Shown: positions 1-6,773 of the stretch, one piece after another
Numbering within the stretch: the stretch's first letter is position 1
How the letters are laid out: the number at the start of each line of letters is the position of its first letter
Source of the DNA: a virus
Taxonomy: Duplodnaviria > Heunggongvirae > Uroviricota > Caudoviricetes
Reading direction: 5' to 3' (one strand)
Virus record (IMG/VR): IMGVR_UViG_2778261086_000001
Location: 1-6,773 of that record
DNA: 6,773 nucleotides
Notes under the pieces: model-generated
Databases searched by the model: none
What the model was told of the DNA's origin: nothing
Seen by the model: only the letters and a program-made list of their open reading frames with translations
Made by a program: the position numbers and the translations under genes

Positions 1-117
1 ATTATATCGAATGTGATTACAATCGGTGGCGGCGGCACAGTTGGTGTGGCGGCCTCAGTCCGGAACAATTTGAAAACCAGAACCTCGCTTAGGCCTGTGT
101 CCATATTACGTGGGTAG

Positions 118-645
<528 letters not shown>

Positions 646-827
646 GGTAATATTAAATCGGAACATTTACATCGCGGAATGTAAAATTTAAATAAAAAGG
701 ACTCTTCCATGAGCCAAAATTCCTGAAATCTTAAGGGTAAGATAAAAGGTCTTAATCAGAATGACACGTTTTATTAATAAATAAAGCTATTCTTTCATTG
801 CTGTGTTTTTCTTTACAAAAGTAATCC

Positions 828-856
828 TTGCTATGGGTGGTTAATCATGCGTTAAT
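828..856 (+). promoter_or_regulatory. Putative sigma70 promoter of cspI (TTGCTA-N17-GTTAAT), implying a ~145-nt 5' UTR
   Basis: Hexamers TTGCTA (828-833) and GTTAAT (851-856) with a 17-bp spacer in AT-rich DNA. Resembles the cspA promoter layout (TTGCAT-N17-CTTAAT, from memory). The predicted start near 863 gives the long leader typical of cspA-family genes. By eye only. Confidence 0.3.
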
Positions 857-1007
857 GGTGTTCTGGTTTGTTACAAATTTATCTGAAGCAGTCATTGTTA
901 TAATTTTATTATTTGTACCTCTTGAGATTTCCTTGTTGGTTTTTCTCTCTGATATTTTTTTTCGGACCATTCTGCCCAAGGGCTAATTTCTTCAAAAGGT
1001 AATAATT

Positions 1008-1220
1008 ATGTCTAACAAAATGACTGGTTTAGTGAAATGGTTTAACCCTGAAAAAGGTTTTGGTTTCATCACGCCGAAAGATGGCAGCAAAGATGTGTTT
1101 GTCCATTTCTCAGCAATTCAGAGCAACGATTTCAAAACATTAACTGAGAATCAGGAAGTTGAATTTGGTATTGAGAACGGACCTAAAGGTCCTGCCGCTG
1201 TTCATGTAGTGGCGCTTTGA
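1008..1220 (+). CDS. cspI: Cold-shock protein, CspA family (CspI-like)
   Basis: 70-aa [41 protein letters not shown]... with the RNP1 (KGFGFI) and RNP2 (VFVHF) motifs of the cold-shock domain. The AAAGGTAATA Shine-Dalgarno context resembles cspA. Sequence matches my recollection of K-12 Qin CspI. Confidence 0.9.
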
Positions 1221-1242
1221 GGTAGACAATATTACAAACCAT

Positions 1243-1419
1243 ATTCACTTTAGATGCCCGTGTTGTCATGGTTCCCAGTATAGAACATCATCTTTTGATG
1301 TTTCTGACATGAATCCTTTCGGGGCAAAATGTATCTTTTGTAAATCAATGATGATTACATTTGATAATATTTCACAATACTTAAATGCCAGCCGTCTGTC
1401 GTTGGATTTAAAAAAGTGA
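1243..1419 (+). CDS. Putative zinc-ribbon small protein (CPCC...CIFC); start codon uncertain, no in-frame ATG/GTG/TTG upstream of the first Cys pair
   Basis: Open frame from 1210 to TGA 1417-1419 encoding ...HFRCPCCHGSQYRTSSFDVSDMNPFGAKCIFCKSMMITFDNISQYLNASRLSLDLKK. Two Cys pairs about 22 residues apart suggest a zinc ribbon. The only in-frame ATG (1309) lies after the first Cys pair; ATT at 1243 is used here as a nominal start. An intrinsic terminator follows immediately. Could be a start-codon-mutated pseudogene. Confidence 0.3.
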   Translation: MHFRCPCCHGSQYRTSSFDVSDMNPFGAKCIFCKSMMITFDNISQYLNASRLSLDLKK

Positions 1420-1423
1420 AAAT

Positions 1424-1448
1424 GAAGGCTCCTTCGGGAGCTTTTTTG
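1424..1448 (+). terminator. Rho-independent terminator closing the cspI / micro-ORF transcription unit
   Basis: GC stem GCTCC/GGAGC around a TTCG tetraloop (1428-1441), extendable by A-U pairs, followed by TTTTTT (1442-1447). Confidence 0.5.
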
Positions 1449-1491
1449 CTTGGTGTCTATTCGATGGATACTCACATACTACGGTAACATC

Positions 1492-1722
1492 ATGAAAAAA
1501 ATCATAGTTTTTTTTAACTCTGAACCAGCAGTGGTAGTGCCAGCGATGACTGGAGTTAACACCATCATGCGTGAATATCCAAATGGCGAAAAAACACACC
1601 TTACTGTAATGGCCGCAGGGTTTCCATCTCTGACCGGAGATCATAAAGTCATTTATGTAGCCGCGGATCGACATGTTACTTCAGAAGAAATTCTGGAAGC
1701 AGCAATAAGGCTCTTGAGTTGA
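1492..1722 (+). CDS. Small hypothetical protein of the Qin-type cold-shock cargo cluster (possibly YnfN/YmcE-like)
   Basis: 76-aa ORF MKKIIVFFNSEPAVVVPAMTGVNTIMREYPNGEKTHLTVMAAGFPSLTGDHKVIYVAADRHVTSEEILEAAIRLLS, immediately upstream of gnsB on the same strand. No strong Shine-Dalgarno at 1492. An internal ATG at 1567 (GGAG 11 nt upstream) would give 51 aa. Identity is inferred from position, not from recognised sequence. Confidence 0.5.
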   Translation: MKKIIVFFNSEPAVVVPAMTGVNTIMREYPNGEKTHLTVMAAGFPSLTGDHKVIYVAADRHVTSEEILEAAIRLLS

Positions 1723-1811
1723 TTTGATGCTATTGCATTGATAATTCAGGAAAATTCTCTTTGTCTGTTTGTGTAAAATTTAGACTATCGTATGTTGATT
1801 ATTGCGATGTT

Positions 1812-1846
1812 TCATCTTATCTTTTACACGTTTGCACCATATAATC
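1812..1846 (+). promoter_or_regulatory. Putative promoter upstream of gnsB (consensus -10 TATAAT at 1840-1845)
   Basis: Perfect TATAAT hexamer 48 nt upstream of the gnsB start. No well-spaced -35 (TTTACA at 1823-1828 is only 11 bp away). Weak call. Confidence 0.25.
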
Positions 1847-1893
1847 GACTTACTGTGTAACTGGAAAGTCATAACAGACTAAAAGAGGAAATG

Positions 1894-2067
1894 ATGAATA
1901 TTGAAAACTTAAAAACAAAAGCAGAAGCAGATATTTCTGAATATATAACAAAAAAAATTATTGAACTTAAGAAAAAGACCGGGAAAGAAGTTACCAGTAT
2001 TCAGTTTACCGCACGGGAAAAAATGACGGGTCTTGAAAGCTATGATGTCAAGATTAATTTAATCTGA
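1894..2067 (+). CDS. gnsB: GnsB (GnsA/GnsB family small protein, Qin prophage)
   Basis: 57-aa ORF MNIENLKTKAEADISEYITKKIIELKKKTGKEVTSIQFTAREKMTGLESYDVKINLI with AAGAGG Shine-Dalgarno 5 nt upstream. Matches my recollection of GnsB and closely resembles GnsA. Confidence 0.85.
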   Translation: MNIENLKTKAEADISEYITKKIIELKKKTGKEVTSIQFTAREKMTGLESYDVKINLI

Positions 2068-2093
2068 TGTATTCAATAATAAAATTTATCCAT

Positions 2094-2125
2094 AAACCTC
2101 GTTTTTACGGGGTTTTGTTATATTT
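2094..2125 (+). terminator. Putative intrinsic terminator downstream of gnsB
   Basis: Hairpin AAACCTCG / CGGGGTTT (2094-2101 and 2108-2115) with a 6-nt loop, followed by a T-rich stretch (TGTTATATTT). Confidence 0.4.
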
Positions 2126-2181
2126 GAATGGTTCCGAATATCTAAATCACAATTGTTGATGGTTTTTATTAAACCAATGCA

Positions 2182-2210
2182 GTCCGGCTCAGGAGTGAGA
2201 GAAGCCGGAC
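2182..2210 (-). terminator. Putative intrinsic terminator of the minus-strand ynfO-ydfO unit
   Basis: Perfect 8-bp stem GTCCGGCT / AGCCGGAC (2182-2189 and 2203-2210) directly 3' of the ydfO stop on the minus strand, followed on that strand by a U-containing tract (UGCAUUGGUUUAAU). Confidence 0.35.
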
Positions 2211-2218
2211 GTTATGGT

Positions 2219-2629
2219 TTAGCGTGGTAAGATCTGTGTAGTTTTCTGGATGCTTTCAGTAAATAGTAATGAATTATCAAAGGTATAGTAATATCTTTTT
2301 TGTTCGTGGATATTTGTAACCCACCGAAAAACTCCTGCTTTAGCAAGGTTTCTTCTGTATTCCTGAAATGTGATCTCTCTGGATTTCAGCTTATTAGAGG
2401 TCGTTTCTATAAGATGCCTATCCTTTGAAAATTTGACAGACACAATGTTTTTTAGGCCCTTTAATAACACTGTATTATCATTTTTTAATACAATATGAAC
2501 ATTCTCTGTGGCTAAATAGTAAATGTAATGTGAGACATTGTGACGTTTTAGCTCAGAATAAAACCATTGATAGTTTAAATCGTTTCGAACTTTATCAAAT
2601 ATTTGTTTAAAAATGACTACCTGATCCAT
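2219..2629 (-). CDS. ydfO: DUF1398-family protein (YdfO/YbcV-like prophage protein)
   Basis: Minus-strand [34 protein letters not shown]...QKTTQILPR (136 aa from ATG 2629; the track's extended start at 2644 gives 141 aa). Neither start has a strong Shine-Dalgarno. Matches my recollection of K-12 Qin YdfO; lies in the Rz-cos interval as YbcV does in DLP12. Confidence 0.75.
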
Positions 2630-2686
2630 AGATAAACCGTCCATGTGATATGAGGGGGCGTAGTCTGCACGATTATCTAAATTGCT

Positions 2687-2920
2687 TCAATCTGGTCTGA
2701 CCTGTTTTCTGAGCAATTCAGTAATGTCACTCTTTTCTTTGTTTGCTTCAGAAGAAACTCTTTTTTCTGAGCACAGTCTCCGGCGGCAGGCTTCAATGAC
2801 CCAGGCTGAGAAATTCCCGGACCCTTTTTGCTCAAGAGCGATGTTAATTTGTTCAATCATTTGGTTAGGAAAGCGGATGTTGCGGGTTGTTGTTCTGCGG
2901 GTTCTGTTCTTCGTTGACAT
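2687..2920 (-). CDS. ynfO: Small ribbon-helix-helix-like protein (YnfO/YlcI-like), directly upstream of ydfO on the same strand
   Basis: 77-aa minus-strand ORF MSTKNRTRRTTTRNIRFPNQMIEQINIALEQKGSGNFSAWVIEACRRRL... The pattern of a basic N-terminus, a short strand (RNIRFP), helix, Gly turn and second helix is RHH-like. The antisense + ORF 2682..2948 was rejected. The lambda right end just before cos carries a similar small minus-strand ORF, as far as I recall. Confidence 0.65.
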   Translation of the reverse strand: MSTKNRTRRTTTRNIRFPNQMIEQINIALEQKGSGNFSAWVIEACRRRLCSEKRVSSEANKEKSDITELLRKQVRPD

Positions 2921-3094
2921 GAGGTTGCCCCGTATTCAGTGTCGCTGATTTGTATTGTCTGAAGTTGTTTTTACGTTAAGTTGATGCAGATCAATTAATA
3001 CGATACCTGCGTCATAATTGATTATTTGACGTGGTTTGATGGCCTCCACGCACGTTGTGATATGTAGATGATAATCATTATCACTTTACGGGTC

Positions 3095-3295
3095 CTTTCC
3101 GGTGATCCGACAGGTTACGGGGCGGCGACCTCGCGGGTTTTCGCTATTTATGAAAATTTTCCGGTTTAAGGCGTTTCCGTTCTTCTTCGTCGTAACTTAA
3201 TGTTTTTATTTAAAATACCCCCTAAAAAGAAAGGAAACGACAGGTGCTGAAAACGAACTTTTGGGCCTCTGTCGTTTCCTTTCTCTGTTTTTGGC
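3095..3295. other. Lambdoid cos site: cosQ, cosN (12-nt cohesive end GGGCGGCGACCT at 3120-3131) and cosB with terminase R sites
   Basis: 3090-3119 reads ...GGGTCCTTTCCGGTGATCCGACAGGTTACG (the lambda right end) followed at 3120 by GGGCGGCGACCTCGCGGGTTTTCGCTATTTATGAAAATTTTCCGGTTTAAGGCGTTTCCGTTCTTCTTCG..., which is near-identical to the first ~190 nt of the lambda genome as I remember it, and leads into the Nu1 homolog. Confidence 0.9.
3229..3283. repeat. Perfect 15-bp inverted repeat GAAAGGAAACGACAG / CTGTCGTTTCCTTTC (lambda cosB R2/R1 terminase small-subunit binding sites)
   Basis: 3229-3243 and 3269-3283 are exact reverse complements. A third copy of the CGTTTCC core (R3) lies at about 3172-3183. 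Confidence 0.7.
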
Positions 3296-3308
3296 CGTGG
3301 AATGAACA

Positions 3309-3830
3309 ATGGAAGTCAACAAAAAGCAGCTGGCTGACATTTTCGGTGCGAGTATCCGTACCATTCAGAACTGGCAGGAACAGGGAATGCCCGTTCTGCG
3401 AGGCGGTGGCAAGGGTAATGAGGTGCTTTATGACTCTGCCGCCGTTATAAGATGGTATGCCGAAAGGGATGCTGAAATTGAGAACGAAAAGCTGCGCCGG
3501 GAAGTTGAAGAACTGCGGCGGGCCAGCGAGACAGATCTCCAGCCAGGGACTATTGAGTACGAACGCCATCGACTTACGCGTGCGCAGGCCGACGCACAGG
3601 AGCTGAAAAATGCCAGAGACTCCGCTGAAGTGGTGGAAACCGCATTCTGTACTTTCGTGCTGTCGCGGATCGCAGGTGAAATTGCCAGTATTCTCGACGG
3701 GATCCCCCTGTCGGTGCAGCGGCGTTTTCCGGAACTGGAAAACCGACATGTTGATTTCCTGAAACGGGATATCATCAAAGCCATGAACAAAGCAGCCGCG
3801 CTGGATGAACTGATACAGCATGGACGTTGA
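3309..3830 (+). CDS. nohA: Terminase small subunit Nu1 homolog, C-terminally truncated (NohA/NohQ-like)
   Basis: 173-aa [72 protein letters not shown]... that follows lambda Nu1 (181 aa) closely through residue ~168 and then ends ...ELIQHGR instead of ELIPGLLSEYIEQSG. No terminase large subunit gene follows. Confidence 0.9.
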
Positions 3831-6696
3831 GTACGGTCAGTACAGCGTTATTCTGTTGGTGGAGGGATTCCCGCCGTCACATGCCGGGACCATCACCGTG
3901 TATGAAGATTCTCAACCCGGTACGCTGAATGATTTTCTCGGTGCCATGACGGAGGATGATGCCCGTCCGGAGGCACTGCGTCGTTTTGAACTGATGGTGG
4001 AAGAGGTGGCGCGTAACGCGTCCGTGGTGGCACAGAACACGGCAGCCGCAAAGAAGTCAGCCAGTGATGCCAGCACATCTGCCAGTGAGGCGGCAACCCG
4101 TGCGACTGATGCTGCAGATTCAGCACGTGCAGCCAGCACGTCAGCCGGACAGGCCGCGTCGTCGGCTCAGTCAGCGTCTTCCAGCGCAGGAACGGCATCA
4201 ACAAAGGCCACTGAAGCCTCAAAAAGTGCTGCCGCTGCAGAGTCCTCAAAAAGCGCGGCGGCTACCAGTGCCGGTGCGGCGAAAACGTCAGAAACGAATG
4301 CGGCAGCGTCAGAACAATCAGCCGCCACTTCTGCATCCACCGCGACCACGAAAGCGTCAGAAGCTGCCACCTCAGCCAGGGATGCGTCGGCTTCAAAAGA
4401 GGCGGCAAAATCATCAGAAACGAGCGCAGCCTCGAGCGCCAGTCGTGCAGCCTCCTCGGCAACAGCGGCAGGAACTTCCGCGAAGGCGGCAAAAACGTCC
4501 GAGACGAACGCAAAGTCTTCTGAGACGGCAGCGGGACAGAGTGCCTCCGCAGCAGCAGACTCAAAAACAGCGGCTGCCTCATCTGCCAGCGCCGCGTCAA
4601 CAAATGCCGGGCAGGCCTCAGCCAGTGCCACCGCTGCCGGAAAGTCGGCAGAAAGCGCCGCATCATCCGCTTCAACAGCCACAACGAAGGCTGGCGAAGC
4701 CACTGAACAGGCCACGGTAGCAGCGAGGTCAGCTTCCGCAGCGAAGACATCCGAAACGAACGCGAAAGCGTCGGAAACCAGCGCAGAATCCTCAAAAACG
4801 GCTGCCGCATCGTCAGCCAGTTCGGCGGCGTCATCGGCATCATCGGCGTCTGCTTCAAAAGATGAGGCGACCAGACAGGCGTCAGCAGCGAAGGGCAGCG
4901 CCACGACGGCATCCACGAAGGCGACAGAGGCAGCTGGCAGTGCGACGGCGGCAGCTCAGAGCAAAAGTACGGCGGAATCCGCGGCAACGCGCGCCGAGAC
5001 AGCAGCAAAACGGGCAGAGGATATTGCATCCGCCGTGGCGCTTGAGGATGCGAGCACGACGAAAAAGGGGATAGTACAGCTCAGCAGTGCGACCAACAGT
5101 ACGTCTGAAACGCTGGCGGCAACGCCAAAGGCAGTAAAATCAGCCTATGACAATGCAGAGAAACGTCTGCAGAAAGACCAGAACGGCACTGATATACCCG
5201 ATAAGGGACGCTTCCTGAACAACATTAACGCGGTCAGTAAAATAGACTTTGCTGATAAGCGTGGTATGCGTTATGTGCGGGTTAACGCTCCTGCAGGTGC
5301 AACATCTGGAAAATATTACCCTGTTGTTGTTATGCGTTCTGCTGGCTCAGTAAGCGAACTGGCATCAAGGGTCATTATCACCACGGCAACGCGAACCGCA
5401 GGCGATCCGATGAATAACTGCGAGTTTAACGGATTTGTTATGCCTGGTGGCTGGACTGACAGGGGGCGTTATGCTTATGGAATGTTCTGGCAATATCAAA
5501 ACAATGAACGAGCCATCCACTCAATAATGATGAGTAATAAGGGCGATGATTTGCGCTCTGTGTTCTATGTTGATGGCGCTGCTTTCCCTGTTTTTGCGTT
5601 TATCGAAGATGGCCTGTCAATATCCGCACCTGGTGCTGATCTCGTTGTTAATGATACGACCTATAAGTTTGGGGCAACAAATCCAGCGACTGAATGTATC
5701 GCGGCGGACGTTATCCTTGATTTTAAGAGTGGGCGTGGTTTTTATGAGTCTCATTCGTTAATCGTTAACGATAATTTGTCGTGCAAAAAACTTTTTGCCA
5801 CAGACGAAATTGTAGCGCGTGGTGGTAATCAGATTCGAATGATAGGTGGGGAGTATGGTGCATTATGGCGTAATGATGGCGCTAAAACTTACCTGCTGCT
5901 TACCAATCAAGGTGATGTTTATGGTGGCTGGAATACATTAAGACCGTTTGCTATTGATAACGCAACCGGCGAACTGGTTATTGGAACCAAACTGTCCGCA
6001 AGTCTGAACGGTAATGCATTAACAGCAACAAAGCTGCAAACGCCAAGACTGGTTTCTGGTGTTGAGTTTGATGGTTCCAGAGATATTACTTTAACCGCCG
6101 CGCATGTGGCTGCTTTTGCCAGAAGGGCAACGGATACATATGCCGATGCGGATGGTGGCGTTCCCTGGAATGCCGAATCAGGTGCTTACAATGTCACCCG
6201 CTCTGGCGACAGCTATATTCTGGTTAACTTCTATACCGGAGTCGGAAGTTGCCGGACCTTGCAGATGAAGGCGCATTACAGAAATGGTGGTCTGTTCTAC
6301 CGTTCTTCAAGAGACGGTTATGGTTTTGAGGATGACTGGGCAGAAGTTTATACCTCGAAAAATCTTCCACCAGAAAGCTACCCAGTCGGCGCACCAATCC
6401 CGTGGCCATCAGATACCGTTCCGTCTGGCTATGCCCTGATGCAGGGGCAGACTTTTGACAAATCTGCATACCCGAAACTTGCAGTGGCTTATCCGTCAGG
6501 CGTTATTCCTGATATGCGTGGCTGGACGATTAAGGGCAAGCCCGCCAGTGGTCGTGCCGTATTGTCTCAGGAACAGGACGGCATTAAATCGCACACCCAC
6601 AGCGCCAGCGCATCCAGTACGGATTTGGGGACGAAAACCACATCATCGTTTGATTACGGCACTAAATCCACGAATAACACTGGTGCACATACCCAT
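3820..6696 (+). pseudogene. stf: Side tail fibre gene (lambda Stf / StfQ/StfR family), missing ~50 N-terminal codons through the deletion that fused it to nohA, and cut at the 3' end by IS2
   Basis: Hand translation from ATG 3820 (11 nt overlap with the nohA stop) gives [72 protein letters not shown]..., which aligns with lambda Stf from residue ~51. A long Ala/Ser/Thr-rich repeat shaft follows, then a beta-rich domain (...[21 protein letters not shown]...), then a lambda-like C-terminal region (...[74 protein letters not shown]...TNNTGAHTH). The frame has no stop to the window end but is replaced by IS2 sequence at 6697. Confidence 0.8.
4040..5010 (+). repeat. Degenerate tandem repeats encoding the Ala/Ser/Thr-rich tail-fibre shaft (recurring AAKTSETNA...SASTATTKA units)
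   Basis: Recurrent DNA motifs such as GCGGCAAAAACGTCNGAGACGAANGC at about 4270, 4490 and 4745. High GC and strong codon periodicity generate the long spurious ORFs in other frames and on the opposite strand (4064..4720 +, 4167..4916 -, 4262..5029 -). Confidence 0.5.
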
Positions 6697-6773
6697 TGGA
6701 TTTGCCCCTATATTTCCAGACACCTGTTATCACTTAACCCATTACTGGCCTGCTGCCGCAGATATTCCCGTGG
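6697..6773 (-). mobile_element. IS2 insertion sequence, right inverted repeat and 3' end of orfB (partial; continues beyond the window)
   Basis: TGGATTTGCCCCTATATTTCCAGACACCTGTTATCACTTAACCCATTAC...CCGCAGATATTCCCGTGG matches my recollection of the IS2 terminal inverted repeat and adjoining insD 3' end. It begins abruptly inside the tail-fibre frame. Confidence 0.85.
6708..6773 (-). CDS. insD: IS2 transposase OrfB (InsD), C-terminal 21 codons only (partial at the window edge)
   Basis: Minus-strand translation of 6773..6708 gives ...[21 protein letters not shown] followed by a stop (TAG, complement of 6708-6710), consistent with an IS2 transposase reading into the terminal repeat. Confidence 0.65.

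Follow-up and report, generated by a model that had tools for sequence, protein, structure and literature searches.

A deletion scar joining nohA to stf in the Qin cryptic prophage of E. coli

In the DNA analysed here (virus record IMGVR_UViG_2778261086_000001, positions 1 to 6,773; this whole stretch of 6,773 nt is called the window), the gene of a lambda-type terminase small subunit, nohA', runs directly into a side-tail-fibre gene, stf', and no terminase large subunit, portal, head or tail gene lies between the two. The question raised by this locus is how both genes were brought together and what was lost in the process. A preliminary description had proposed a deletion at a short common sequence. 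The analysis presented below revealed that the junction is a genuine deletion scar, resulting from ordinary prophage decay, and that both the element and the type of event are already known.

The Qin locus and the ends of the window

Nucleotide identity and gene order identify the locus as Qin, a cryptic lambdoid prophage of E. coli that adjoins ydfJ. Window positions 123-3816 are 99.84% identical to the Qin prophage of MG1655 over 3,694 bp, and the genes are found in the order rzpQ-cspI-ynfN-gnsB-ydfO-ynfO-nohA-stf(-tfaQ-pinQ-ydfK-ydfJ) that characterizes Qin; the arrangement from rzpQ to ynfO followed by nohA-stf-tfaQ-pinQ-ydfK-ydfJ is common to strains G4/9 and K-12. The complete genome of G4/9 is 100% identical to the window over positions 123-6696 (6,574 bp) and provides the full Qin context. 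The length of Qin is known to vary widely among strains (PMC6379469). Literature searches on nohA and the Qin prophage yielded nothing specific to this junction, and those on deletion and microhomology in defective lambdoid prophages returned general background only.

Both ends of the window are occupied by insertion sequences. Positions 1-122 correspond to the terminal 122 nt of IS3 and are 100% identical to the IS3 ends in G4/9, 1303 and EC26. This IS3 end is directly joined to rrrQ, the lysozyme gene of the prophage, 29 bp short of the rrrQ stop, and Qin homology starts at position 123. It is a feature of the contig end, separate from the nohA-stf junction. The same break point in rrrQ was matched in two Logan contigs only (L019 and L020). 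At the other extremity, positions 6697-6773 carry an IS2-type terminal inverted repeat (97.4% identity to an IS3-family element of HCP30S3_I2 and 94.8% to IS2E of K-12), which interrupts stf' at 6696/6697, about 325 bp before the normal stf stop; in G4/9 and nine other junction-bearing loci, stf continues past the position equivalent to 6696. Neither the IS3-rrrQ nor the stf-IS2-type junction was found in the complete E. coli genomes searched.

The junction between nohA and stf

The segment preceding the junction is of lambda type. Alignment with lambda placed a cos region (cosQ, cosN and cosB) at 2758-3308 on the plus strand, and window positions 2758-3816 are colinear with lambda cos-Nu1 (48141-48502 followed by 1-698) at 97.8% identity. 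The 12-nt cohesive-end sequence GGGCGGCGACCT is located at 3120-3131 and an inverted repeat of the R3/R2 type, detected as a self-inverted match, at 3228-3284. The truncated Nu1 homologue nohA' occupies positions 3309-3830 of the plus strand and was recognized from its open reading frame, from PF07471 and by BLASTP. It encodes 173 residues, namely residues 1-169 of the 181 of Nu1 followed by a tail, QHGR, and a stop, both created by the junction. As the preliminary description had noted, the protein follows lambda Nu1 up to AALDELI before this tail is read; over residues 1-169, BLASTP gave 165 identical positions out of 169 (98%). The Phage_Nu1 family PF07471 is matched over its entire length (1-164/164, E = 6e-101), and the C-terminus is incomplete, the last 12 residues of Nu1 being replaced by QHGR. 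Residues 170-181 belong to the gpA-interaction region of lambda terminase; NohA' would retain the DNA-binding and self-assembly parts of the subunit, without its extreme C-terminus.

On the other side, the side-tail-fibre gene stf', deprived of codons 1-48, extends from 3814 to 6696 on the plus strand and was identified by alignment with lambda Stf, by PF08400 and by its identity to Qin stf. Its product is 86% identical to residues 49-286 of lambda Stf (orf-401). At the DNA level, stf' is 99.9% identical to the full-length Qin stf genes of 1303 and VG888-46E9 and is colinear with them downstream of the break. Only positions 51-134 of the 134 of the PF08400 N-terminal domain are found in Stf', followed by Gp34_trimer and Collar domains, whereas the intact Qin Stf (1116 aa) matches PF08400 over 1-134.

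The join was located with base precision. In blastn comparisons, window positions 3120-3816 correspond to lambda 1-698 and positions 3814-4577 to lambda 19794-20557, so that the Nu1-side and stf-side homologies overlap in one TAC at 3814-3816, the common trinucleotide in which the join had been expected to lie. The last intact Nu1 codon is codon 169, codon 170 being changed from CCG to CAG, and from 3814 onward the window is colinear with lambda stf starting at codon 49; the fusion proposed earlier between codons of about 168 and 50 is thus real, with slightly different codons at its two sides. This TAC (plus strand) is present once at the join and also at each of the two parental breakpoints, that is at nucleotides 506-508 of Nu1/nohA and at stf codon 49. 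Three-way alignments with the intact arrangement as reference did not reveal any filler DNA, insertion sequence or repeat at the join, and the same breakpoints and TAC overlap were obtained with each of four references (lambda, HCP30S3_I2, 1303 and VG888-46E9).

The parental arrangement is preserved in related strains. HCP30S3_I2 was taken as the first intact reference and was replaced by VG888-46E9, a better proxy, because HCP30S3_I2 carries a somewhat divergent allele of the nohA region (97.7-99.4% identity). VG888-46E9 differs from the window at none of 3694 positions on the left and at one of 2185 on the right, and carries between the two breakpoints the complete block nohA-A-W-B-C-D-E-FI-FII-Z-U-V-G-T-H-M-L-K-I-J-lom-stf. 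Since the flanks are 99.9-100% identical to those of a related intact prophage, the resemblance at the junction is not due to chance. The flanks are colinear with one and the same intact arrangement (VG888-46E9, HCP30S3_I2 and lambda) and the join is clean, as expected for a deletion. The absent interval corresponds to lambda 699-19796 (19,098 bp) and amounts to 19,153 bp relative to VG888-46E9, the closest intact Qin, which exceeds the loss of roughly 17 kb estimated beforehand.

These results are very probably explained by a deletion within Qin that joined nohA to stf through short-homology illegitimate recombination between the two TACs. Taken alone, the TAC goes only weakly beyond chance, an overlap of 3 nt or more being obtained at a single random join with P = 0.058 (200,000 simulated joins). 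The microhomology becomes convincing only because all five deletion junctions of this Qin clade carry 3-4 nt, a regularity which points to short-homology illegitimate recombination. A RecA-independent process, for example replication slippage or misjoining between the nohA and stf TACs, would have eliminated the 12 terminal codons of nohA, genes A, W, B, C, D, E, FI, FII, Z to J and lom, and stf codons 1-48. The loss would be of 19,153 bp from an intact Qin, or of the last 2,833 bp if the ancestor was already decayed, and the non-functional remnant would consist of an intact cos, a C-terminally shortened NohA and an N-truncated fibre pseudogene.

Course and consequences of the deletion

The preliminary description attributed the loss of the whole morphogenetic region to this junction. 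The genes are indeed gone, and the attribution of all of them to one event does not follow: most head and tail genes are already absent from strain 1303, and the scar could stem from a single deletion of 19 kb or from a last step of 2.8 kb. According to the second possibility, the junction is the last deletion, of 2,833 bp, in a 1303-like ancestor that had undergone two earlier ones, from A(3') to E(5') and from Z(3') to lom, and did not itself remove the morphogenetic region. In 1303, the arrangement is nohA-A'(1233 bp)-'E-FI-FII-Z'-stf with two internal deletions, and its mismatches with the window are limited to none of 3167 positions on the left and two of 2883 on the right. Stepwise loss does occur in the clade, EC26 displaying the A'^'E junction of 1303 together with a further nested deletion, and an IS3 between ydfW and flxA is common to G4/9, 1303 and EC26 and absent from VG888-46E9 and HCP30S3_I2. 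This IS3 unites the three strains without ordering them. Over 35.8 kb of common sequence, they form a star tree, since the SNPs among them are all private (6 in EC26, 4 in G4/9, and 1 plus a 20-bp deletion in 1303), and none is a shared derived SNP that would put G4/9 within the clade with the A'^'E junction. Moreover, four events are counted whether the history was one-step or stepwise, and the sequence of the intact VG888-46E9 is just as close to that of the window. Stepwise decay is therefore quite possible, though we would stop short of favouring it.

It had also been suggested that an N-truncated fibre could be translationally coupled to nohA. The geometry on which this idea was based is correct: the first in-frame ATG of stf' (3820-3822), Met51 of the Stf frame, sits 8 nt upstream of the nohA stop TGA at 3828-3830. 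The stf' frame contains no stop between the junction and the IS end and is open over 3.2 kb in G4/9, and automatic gene callers begin a 1066-aa product exactly at this ATG (L016 and L019). The ribosome-binding signal gave no support to such coupling. The Shine-Dalgarno (anti-SD duplex) energy at ATG 3820 is at background level, -3.1 kcal/mol or the 43rd percentile of the ATGs of the window, against -6.0 kcal/mol at the native stf start. No promoter-like site was found in a promoter and terminator scan of positions 2900-4200, and the one terminator-like match in this region, on the minus strand, is at or below the shuffled expectation. Furthermore, Stf' is devoid of positions 1-50 of the 134 of PF08400, no tail genes are left in the prophage, and stf has suffered additional damage in the form of the IS2-type insertion in the window, an IS1 in VG888-46E9 and split gene calls in L017, L020 and L021. 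In G4/9, RefSeq annotates the stf frame as a pseudogene missing its N-terminus. It is consequently highly improbable that a working expression unit arose at the junction, in which reinitiation at ATG 3820 after the nohA TGA would yield a useful 1066-aa fibre. NohA' and Stf' are both probably non-functional.

All the decayed Qin alleles seen (the window, K-12, 52F4, GmM062, 1303 and EC26) have lost the terminase large subunit and retain an intact cos, together with no fewer than 169 NohA codons out of 181. We consider it very unlikely that this retention is selected, with NohA' acting as a packaging decoy or dominant-negative subunit or the locus hitch-hiking on a helper terminase. If it were, a cos-binding small subunit unable to recruit gpA, placed beside a functional cos, would hinder packaging by superinfecting lambdoid phages or, alternatively, the locus would be packaged by the terminase of a helper phage. 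Ascertainment could account for the pattern just as well, the searches having begun at nohA and stf.

A different origin of stf' can be envisaged, in which a chromosomal rearrangement linked Qin nohA to a fibre gene from another lambdoid prophage, for example Rac. Side-tail-fibre genes are mosaic, the Qin stf of 52F4 reaching no more than 94% identity and having a central part that does not align, and a prophage of NT1F10 at a different locus, near paoD, possesses an stf that is 96.7% identical. Such an exchange is nevertheless scarcely credible for the window: over 2.9 kb, stf' shares 99.7-99.9% identity with its counterparts in 1303, VG888-46E9 and HCP30S3_I2, whose Qin prophages occupy the same locus, and the native Qin right end tfaQ-pinQ-ydfK-ynfT-ydfJ follows stf' in G4/9 and other loci.

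Finally, the collapse of two lambdoid prophages into a chimeric contig by a short-read assembler, an artefact suggested by the likeness of the window to a short draft contig with IS ends on both sides and by the frequent occurrence in E. coli genomes of several lambdoid prophages whose Nu1 and stf genes resemble one another (median of 3 places per genome), is effectively refuted. The same junction is present in the closed genome of G4/9, in a polished 4.8-Mb ENA contig and in assemblies of many samples from NCBI and Logan, and in each of them identical Qin flanks extend to ydfJ. The junction-specific 173-aa NohA was detected on at least 132 contigs (217 index blocks), and the 60-nt junction is identical in the nine loci read out of nine. 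Judged by this recurrence, the junction is real and inherited.

Comparison with related prophages

The scar records, to the base, the loss of the Qin structural genes in one E. coli lineage and is of small import alone. Its added value is modest and comparative, and resides in the coexisting forms, in the series of 3-4 nt microhomologies and in the independent K-12 junction. Intact, partly deleted and fully deleted Qin prophages coexist among strains with less than about 10 SNPs between them over 36 kb, and the Qin locus could serve as a handy natural series for the study of deletion rates and mechanisms in prophage domestication.

Among short-homology illegitimate deletions of prophages, the join of the window is set apart by no distinctive feature: it is clean, its 3 nt occur at both parental sites, neither filler nor mobile element is present, and four other junctions of the clade bear the same signature of 3-4 nt. 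The sequence does not tell slippage from end joining. The Qin prophages with an intact region (VG888-46E9, HCP30S3_I2 and ETEC1732) lie at the same locus with near-identical flanks and keep the complete 19.15-kb morphogenetic block from nohA to stf that is missing from the window. The identity with lambda amounts to 97.6-97.8% in the cos-Nu1 segment and, in the 5' region of stf, to 85.6% for DNA and 86% for protein. In lambda, stf is split by a frameshift into orf-401 and orf-314, whereas the stf of the window is of the long, uninterrupted Ur-lambda type.

The closest parallel is the Qin prophage of K-12 MG1655 (nohA b1548 and stfQ b1547), which has the same chromosomal locus and gene order and in which, as in the window, nohA abuts a truncated stf and the head and tail genes are all missing. 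The identity of both junctions was considered and rejected. In K-12, the Nu1 segment is longer by 21 nucleotides (ending near lambda 719), so that NohA has 189 aa against 173 aa for NohA', and it is joined to a late part of stf (StfQ, 320 aa), whereas the window possesses about 2.5 kb of stf absent from K-12. On this comparison, the K-12 and window junctions are independent, the former having arisen 21 nt away on the nohA side, and neither form is ancestral to the other.

Identity and ends of the window

Judged by its sequence, the window is a late-region remnant of Qin, a cryptic lambdoid prophage of E. coli. From the open reading frames (ORFs) and annotated relatives, the genes were assigned as rzpQ (148-645), cspI (1008-1220), gnsB (1891-2067), ydfO (2219-2644, minus strand), ynfO (2687-2920, minus strand) and nohA (3309-3830), the homologue of the lambda terminase small subunit gene Nu1, and from 3814 a long open frame with homology to stf, the side tail fibre gene, continues as far as the prophage-derived sequence does. 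Directly upstream of the truncated nohA lies a full cos region of the lambda type (cosQ-cosN-cosB, 2758-3308; cosN at 3120-3131), with 97.8% identity to lambda. Positions 123-6696 match E. coli G4/9, a closed genome, at 100% identity, and there the segment is followed by tfaQ, pinQ, ydfK, ynfT and then the truncated host gene ydfJ; over positions 123-3816, the Qin prophage of K-12 MG1655 shows 99.84% identity. Two antisense ORFs of 249 and 255 aa (minus strand, 4167-4916 and 4262-5029), most likely compositional artefacts, were also observed within stf, in its Ala/Ser-rich repeat part, and lambda orf206b is annotated at the same place on the strand opposite to stf.

Both ends of the window carry repeated elements, a pattern typical of a short-read contig stopping at repeats. 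Positions 1-122 form the outermost 122 nt of an IS3 element and do not belong to Qin; their junction with rrrQ (122/123) lies 29 bp short of the stop of this lysozyme gene, a short way upstream of rzpQ. This exact IS3/rrrQ join is absent from complete E. coli genomes, and it is at this point that two Logan contigs (L019 and L020) also break, so that the insertion in rrrQ marks a sub-lineage among the strains bearing the nohA-stf junction. Positions 6697-6773 correspond to an IS2-type terminal inverted repeat (TGGATTTGCCCCTATATTTCCAGACAC...), likewise foreign to Qin, which cuts the truncated stf at 6696/6697, about 325 bp before its stop. This insertion is not present in G4/9 and nine other junction-bearing loci; because it adds to the N-terminal truncation, the fibre gene is doubly disrupted in the source strain.

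Deletion of the morphogenetic block

The preliminary description had read the passage from nohA to stf as a deletion junction, and this was essentially right. As it had stated, the nohA frame follows lambda Nu1 up to AALDELI and then reads QHGR-stop (residues 1-169 against Nu1 1-169, 98% identity), the next frame continues as lambda Stf (aligned from 3814, at Stf residue 49), and the two homologies overlap at a shared TAC (3814-3816). At the DNA level, 3120-3816 corresponds to lambda 1-698 at 97.6% and 3814-4577 to lambda 19794-20557 at 85.6%. The breakpoints had been placed at about codons 168 and 50; the Nu1/stf join holds, but Nu1 is intact through codon 169 and Stf begins at codon 49. Removal of the morphogenetic genes also stands, although the interval in lambda is 19,098 bp and not about 17 kb.

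Comparison with related intact prophages, as had been suggested, revealed an intact block at the same chromosomal locus, for example in VG888-46E9, whose Qin carries the complete lambda-like series nohA-A-W-B-C-D-E-FI-FII-Z-U-V-G-T-H-M-L-K-I-J-lom-stf. Left of the junction this prophage and the window do not differ over 3,694 bp, right of it they show 1 mismatch in 2,185 bp and a single gap over another 711 bp, and the window lacks exactly 19,153 bp. The block is likewise intact in HCP30S3_I2 and ETEC1732. Since complete versions of both truncated genes exist in the same context, the change is a deletion. TAC occurs at both parental sites and one copy is kept at the join, where comparison with the intact parental sites revealed no filler DNA, IS or repeat.

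When 200,000 random joins were simulated inside the intact region, an overlap of at least 3 nt arose in 5.8% of them, and 3 nt is by itself weak evidence. Five independent junctions of the Qin clade were each compared against VG888-46E9: the nohA-stf join of the window (TAC), the A-E join common to strains 1303 and EC26 (TAT), the join of Z to the region before stf in 1303 (ATTA), the FI-stf join of EC26 (GAAG) and the A-stf join of GmM062 (TTCC, inside a 9/11 imperfect match). All five show a microhomology of 3-4 nt, for which the simulated frequency gives a probability of about 7e-7 (at least 3 nt at 5/5). As far as sequence can tell, these results support a general erosion of the region by short-homology, RecA-independent illegitimate recombination, whose particular enzymology we infer.

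A single 19.15-kb deletion and a stepwise loss ending with a 2.8-kb step are about equally likely. The stretch from nohA to the fibre genes exists in several partly deleted states: 52F4 retains 249 bp of A, then the end of lom and stf; GmM062 retains 1170 bp of A, then stf from codon ~67; 1303 retains 1233 bp of A, the end of E, FI, FII, 96 bp of Z and full stf; and EC26 shares the A-E junction of 1303, with a truncated FI joined to late stf. In sequence, the 1303 prophage (mismatches: 0/3167 left, 2/2883 right) and the intact VG888-46E9 are equally close to the window, and from a 1303-like ancestor the junction needs the loss of only 2,833 bp. In G4/9, 1303 and EC26, but not in the intact strains, IS3 has inserted between ydfW and flxA. 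However, the 35.8 kb common to these three contains private changes only (EC26, 6 SNPs; G4/9, 4 SNPs; 1303, 1 SNP and a 20-bp deletion), so that their tree is a star, and both histories require the same number of events. With ~10 or fewer private SNPs per 35.8 kb, each of the three strains has a deletion architecture of its own from nohA to tfaQ; structural decay here is fast relative to point mutation.

Consequences for the retained genes

The truncated NohA covers the Pfam Nu1 profile from end to end (1-164/164) and lacks the last 12 residues, which we take to lie within the C-terminal region binding the large subunit gpA; the gpA gene is itself absent from the prophage in the window. Translated from ATG 3820, the truncated Stf would contain only positions 51-134 of the 134 of its N-terminal domain; the Gp34_trimer and Collar domains downstream are normal. 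This in-frame ATG and the nohA stop (3828-3830) are both as claimed, and the geometry proposed for translational coupling of the fibre to nohA is real, the ATG lying 8 nt upstream of the stop. Ribosome-binding support fails: the anti-Shine-Dalgarno pairing upstream of 3820 is -3.1 kcal/mol (43rd percentile of all window ATGs) against -6.0 at the native stf start. A scan found no promoter-like site near this ATG. Coupling would therefore be geometrically possible, with nothing to support it. RefSeq annotates the truncated stf as a pseudogene, in other strains the gene has IS1 insertions or split calls, and the prophage lacks a tail to which a fibre could attach.

In all decayed alleles examined (window, K-12, 52F4, GmM062, 1303 and EC26), cos and no fewer than 169 of 181 codons of nohA remain, and the left breakpoints cluster within ~1.9 kb of the start of the 19-kb block. 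This retention may reflect ascertainment bias, the searches having been seeded with nohA and stf; that it was selected is very improbable.

Occurrence of the junction and comparison with K-12 Qin

A search of 5,426 complete genomes of E. coli found the junction in one piece only in G4/9. Its diagnostic product, a NohA of 173 aa ending in QHGR, occurs as an exact sequence on at least 132 contigs (217 index blocks; NCBI, ENA and Logan assemblies), and the identical 60-nt junction stood in Qin context at 9/9 loci read. An assembly artefact is ruled out by the closed genome, these contigs and these loci.

In K-12 Qin, nohA also adjoins a truncated stf. There, however, 21 more nt of Nu1 (CGGGGTTGCTGAGTGAATATA) are followed by a late part of stf, giving a NohA of 189 aa and a StfQ of 320 aa, whereas the window lacks these 21 nt and possesses about 2.5 kb of stf absent from K-12. 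Neither form can be derived from the other, which indicates independent deletions. The nohA-side ends of the two lie within 21 nt (window 3816, compared with 5799-6368 of the K-12 MG1655 locus). The present junction differs from that of K-12 and seems to be undescribed, although public records already contain and annotate it.

At the ydfJ locus, Qin of VG888-46E9, HCP30S3_I2 and ETEC1732 has a full lambda-like head and tail gene block, and in G4/9 and 1303 the annotation treats the Qin integrase and excisionase as intact; Qin is thus not uniformly cryptic. Across 189 strains, published Qin sizes span 11 to 97 kb (PMC6379469). What the window records is ordinary erosion, in an already known cryptic prophage, Qin.
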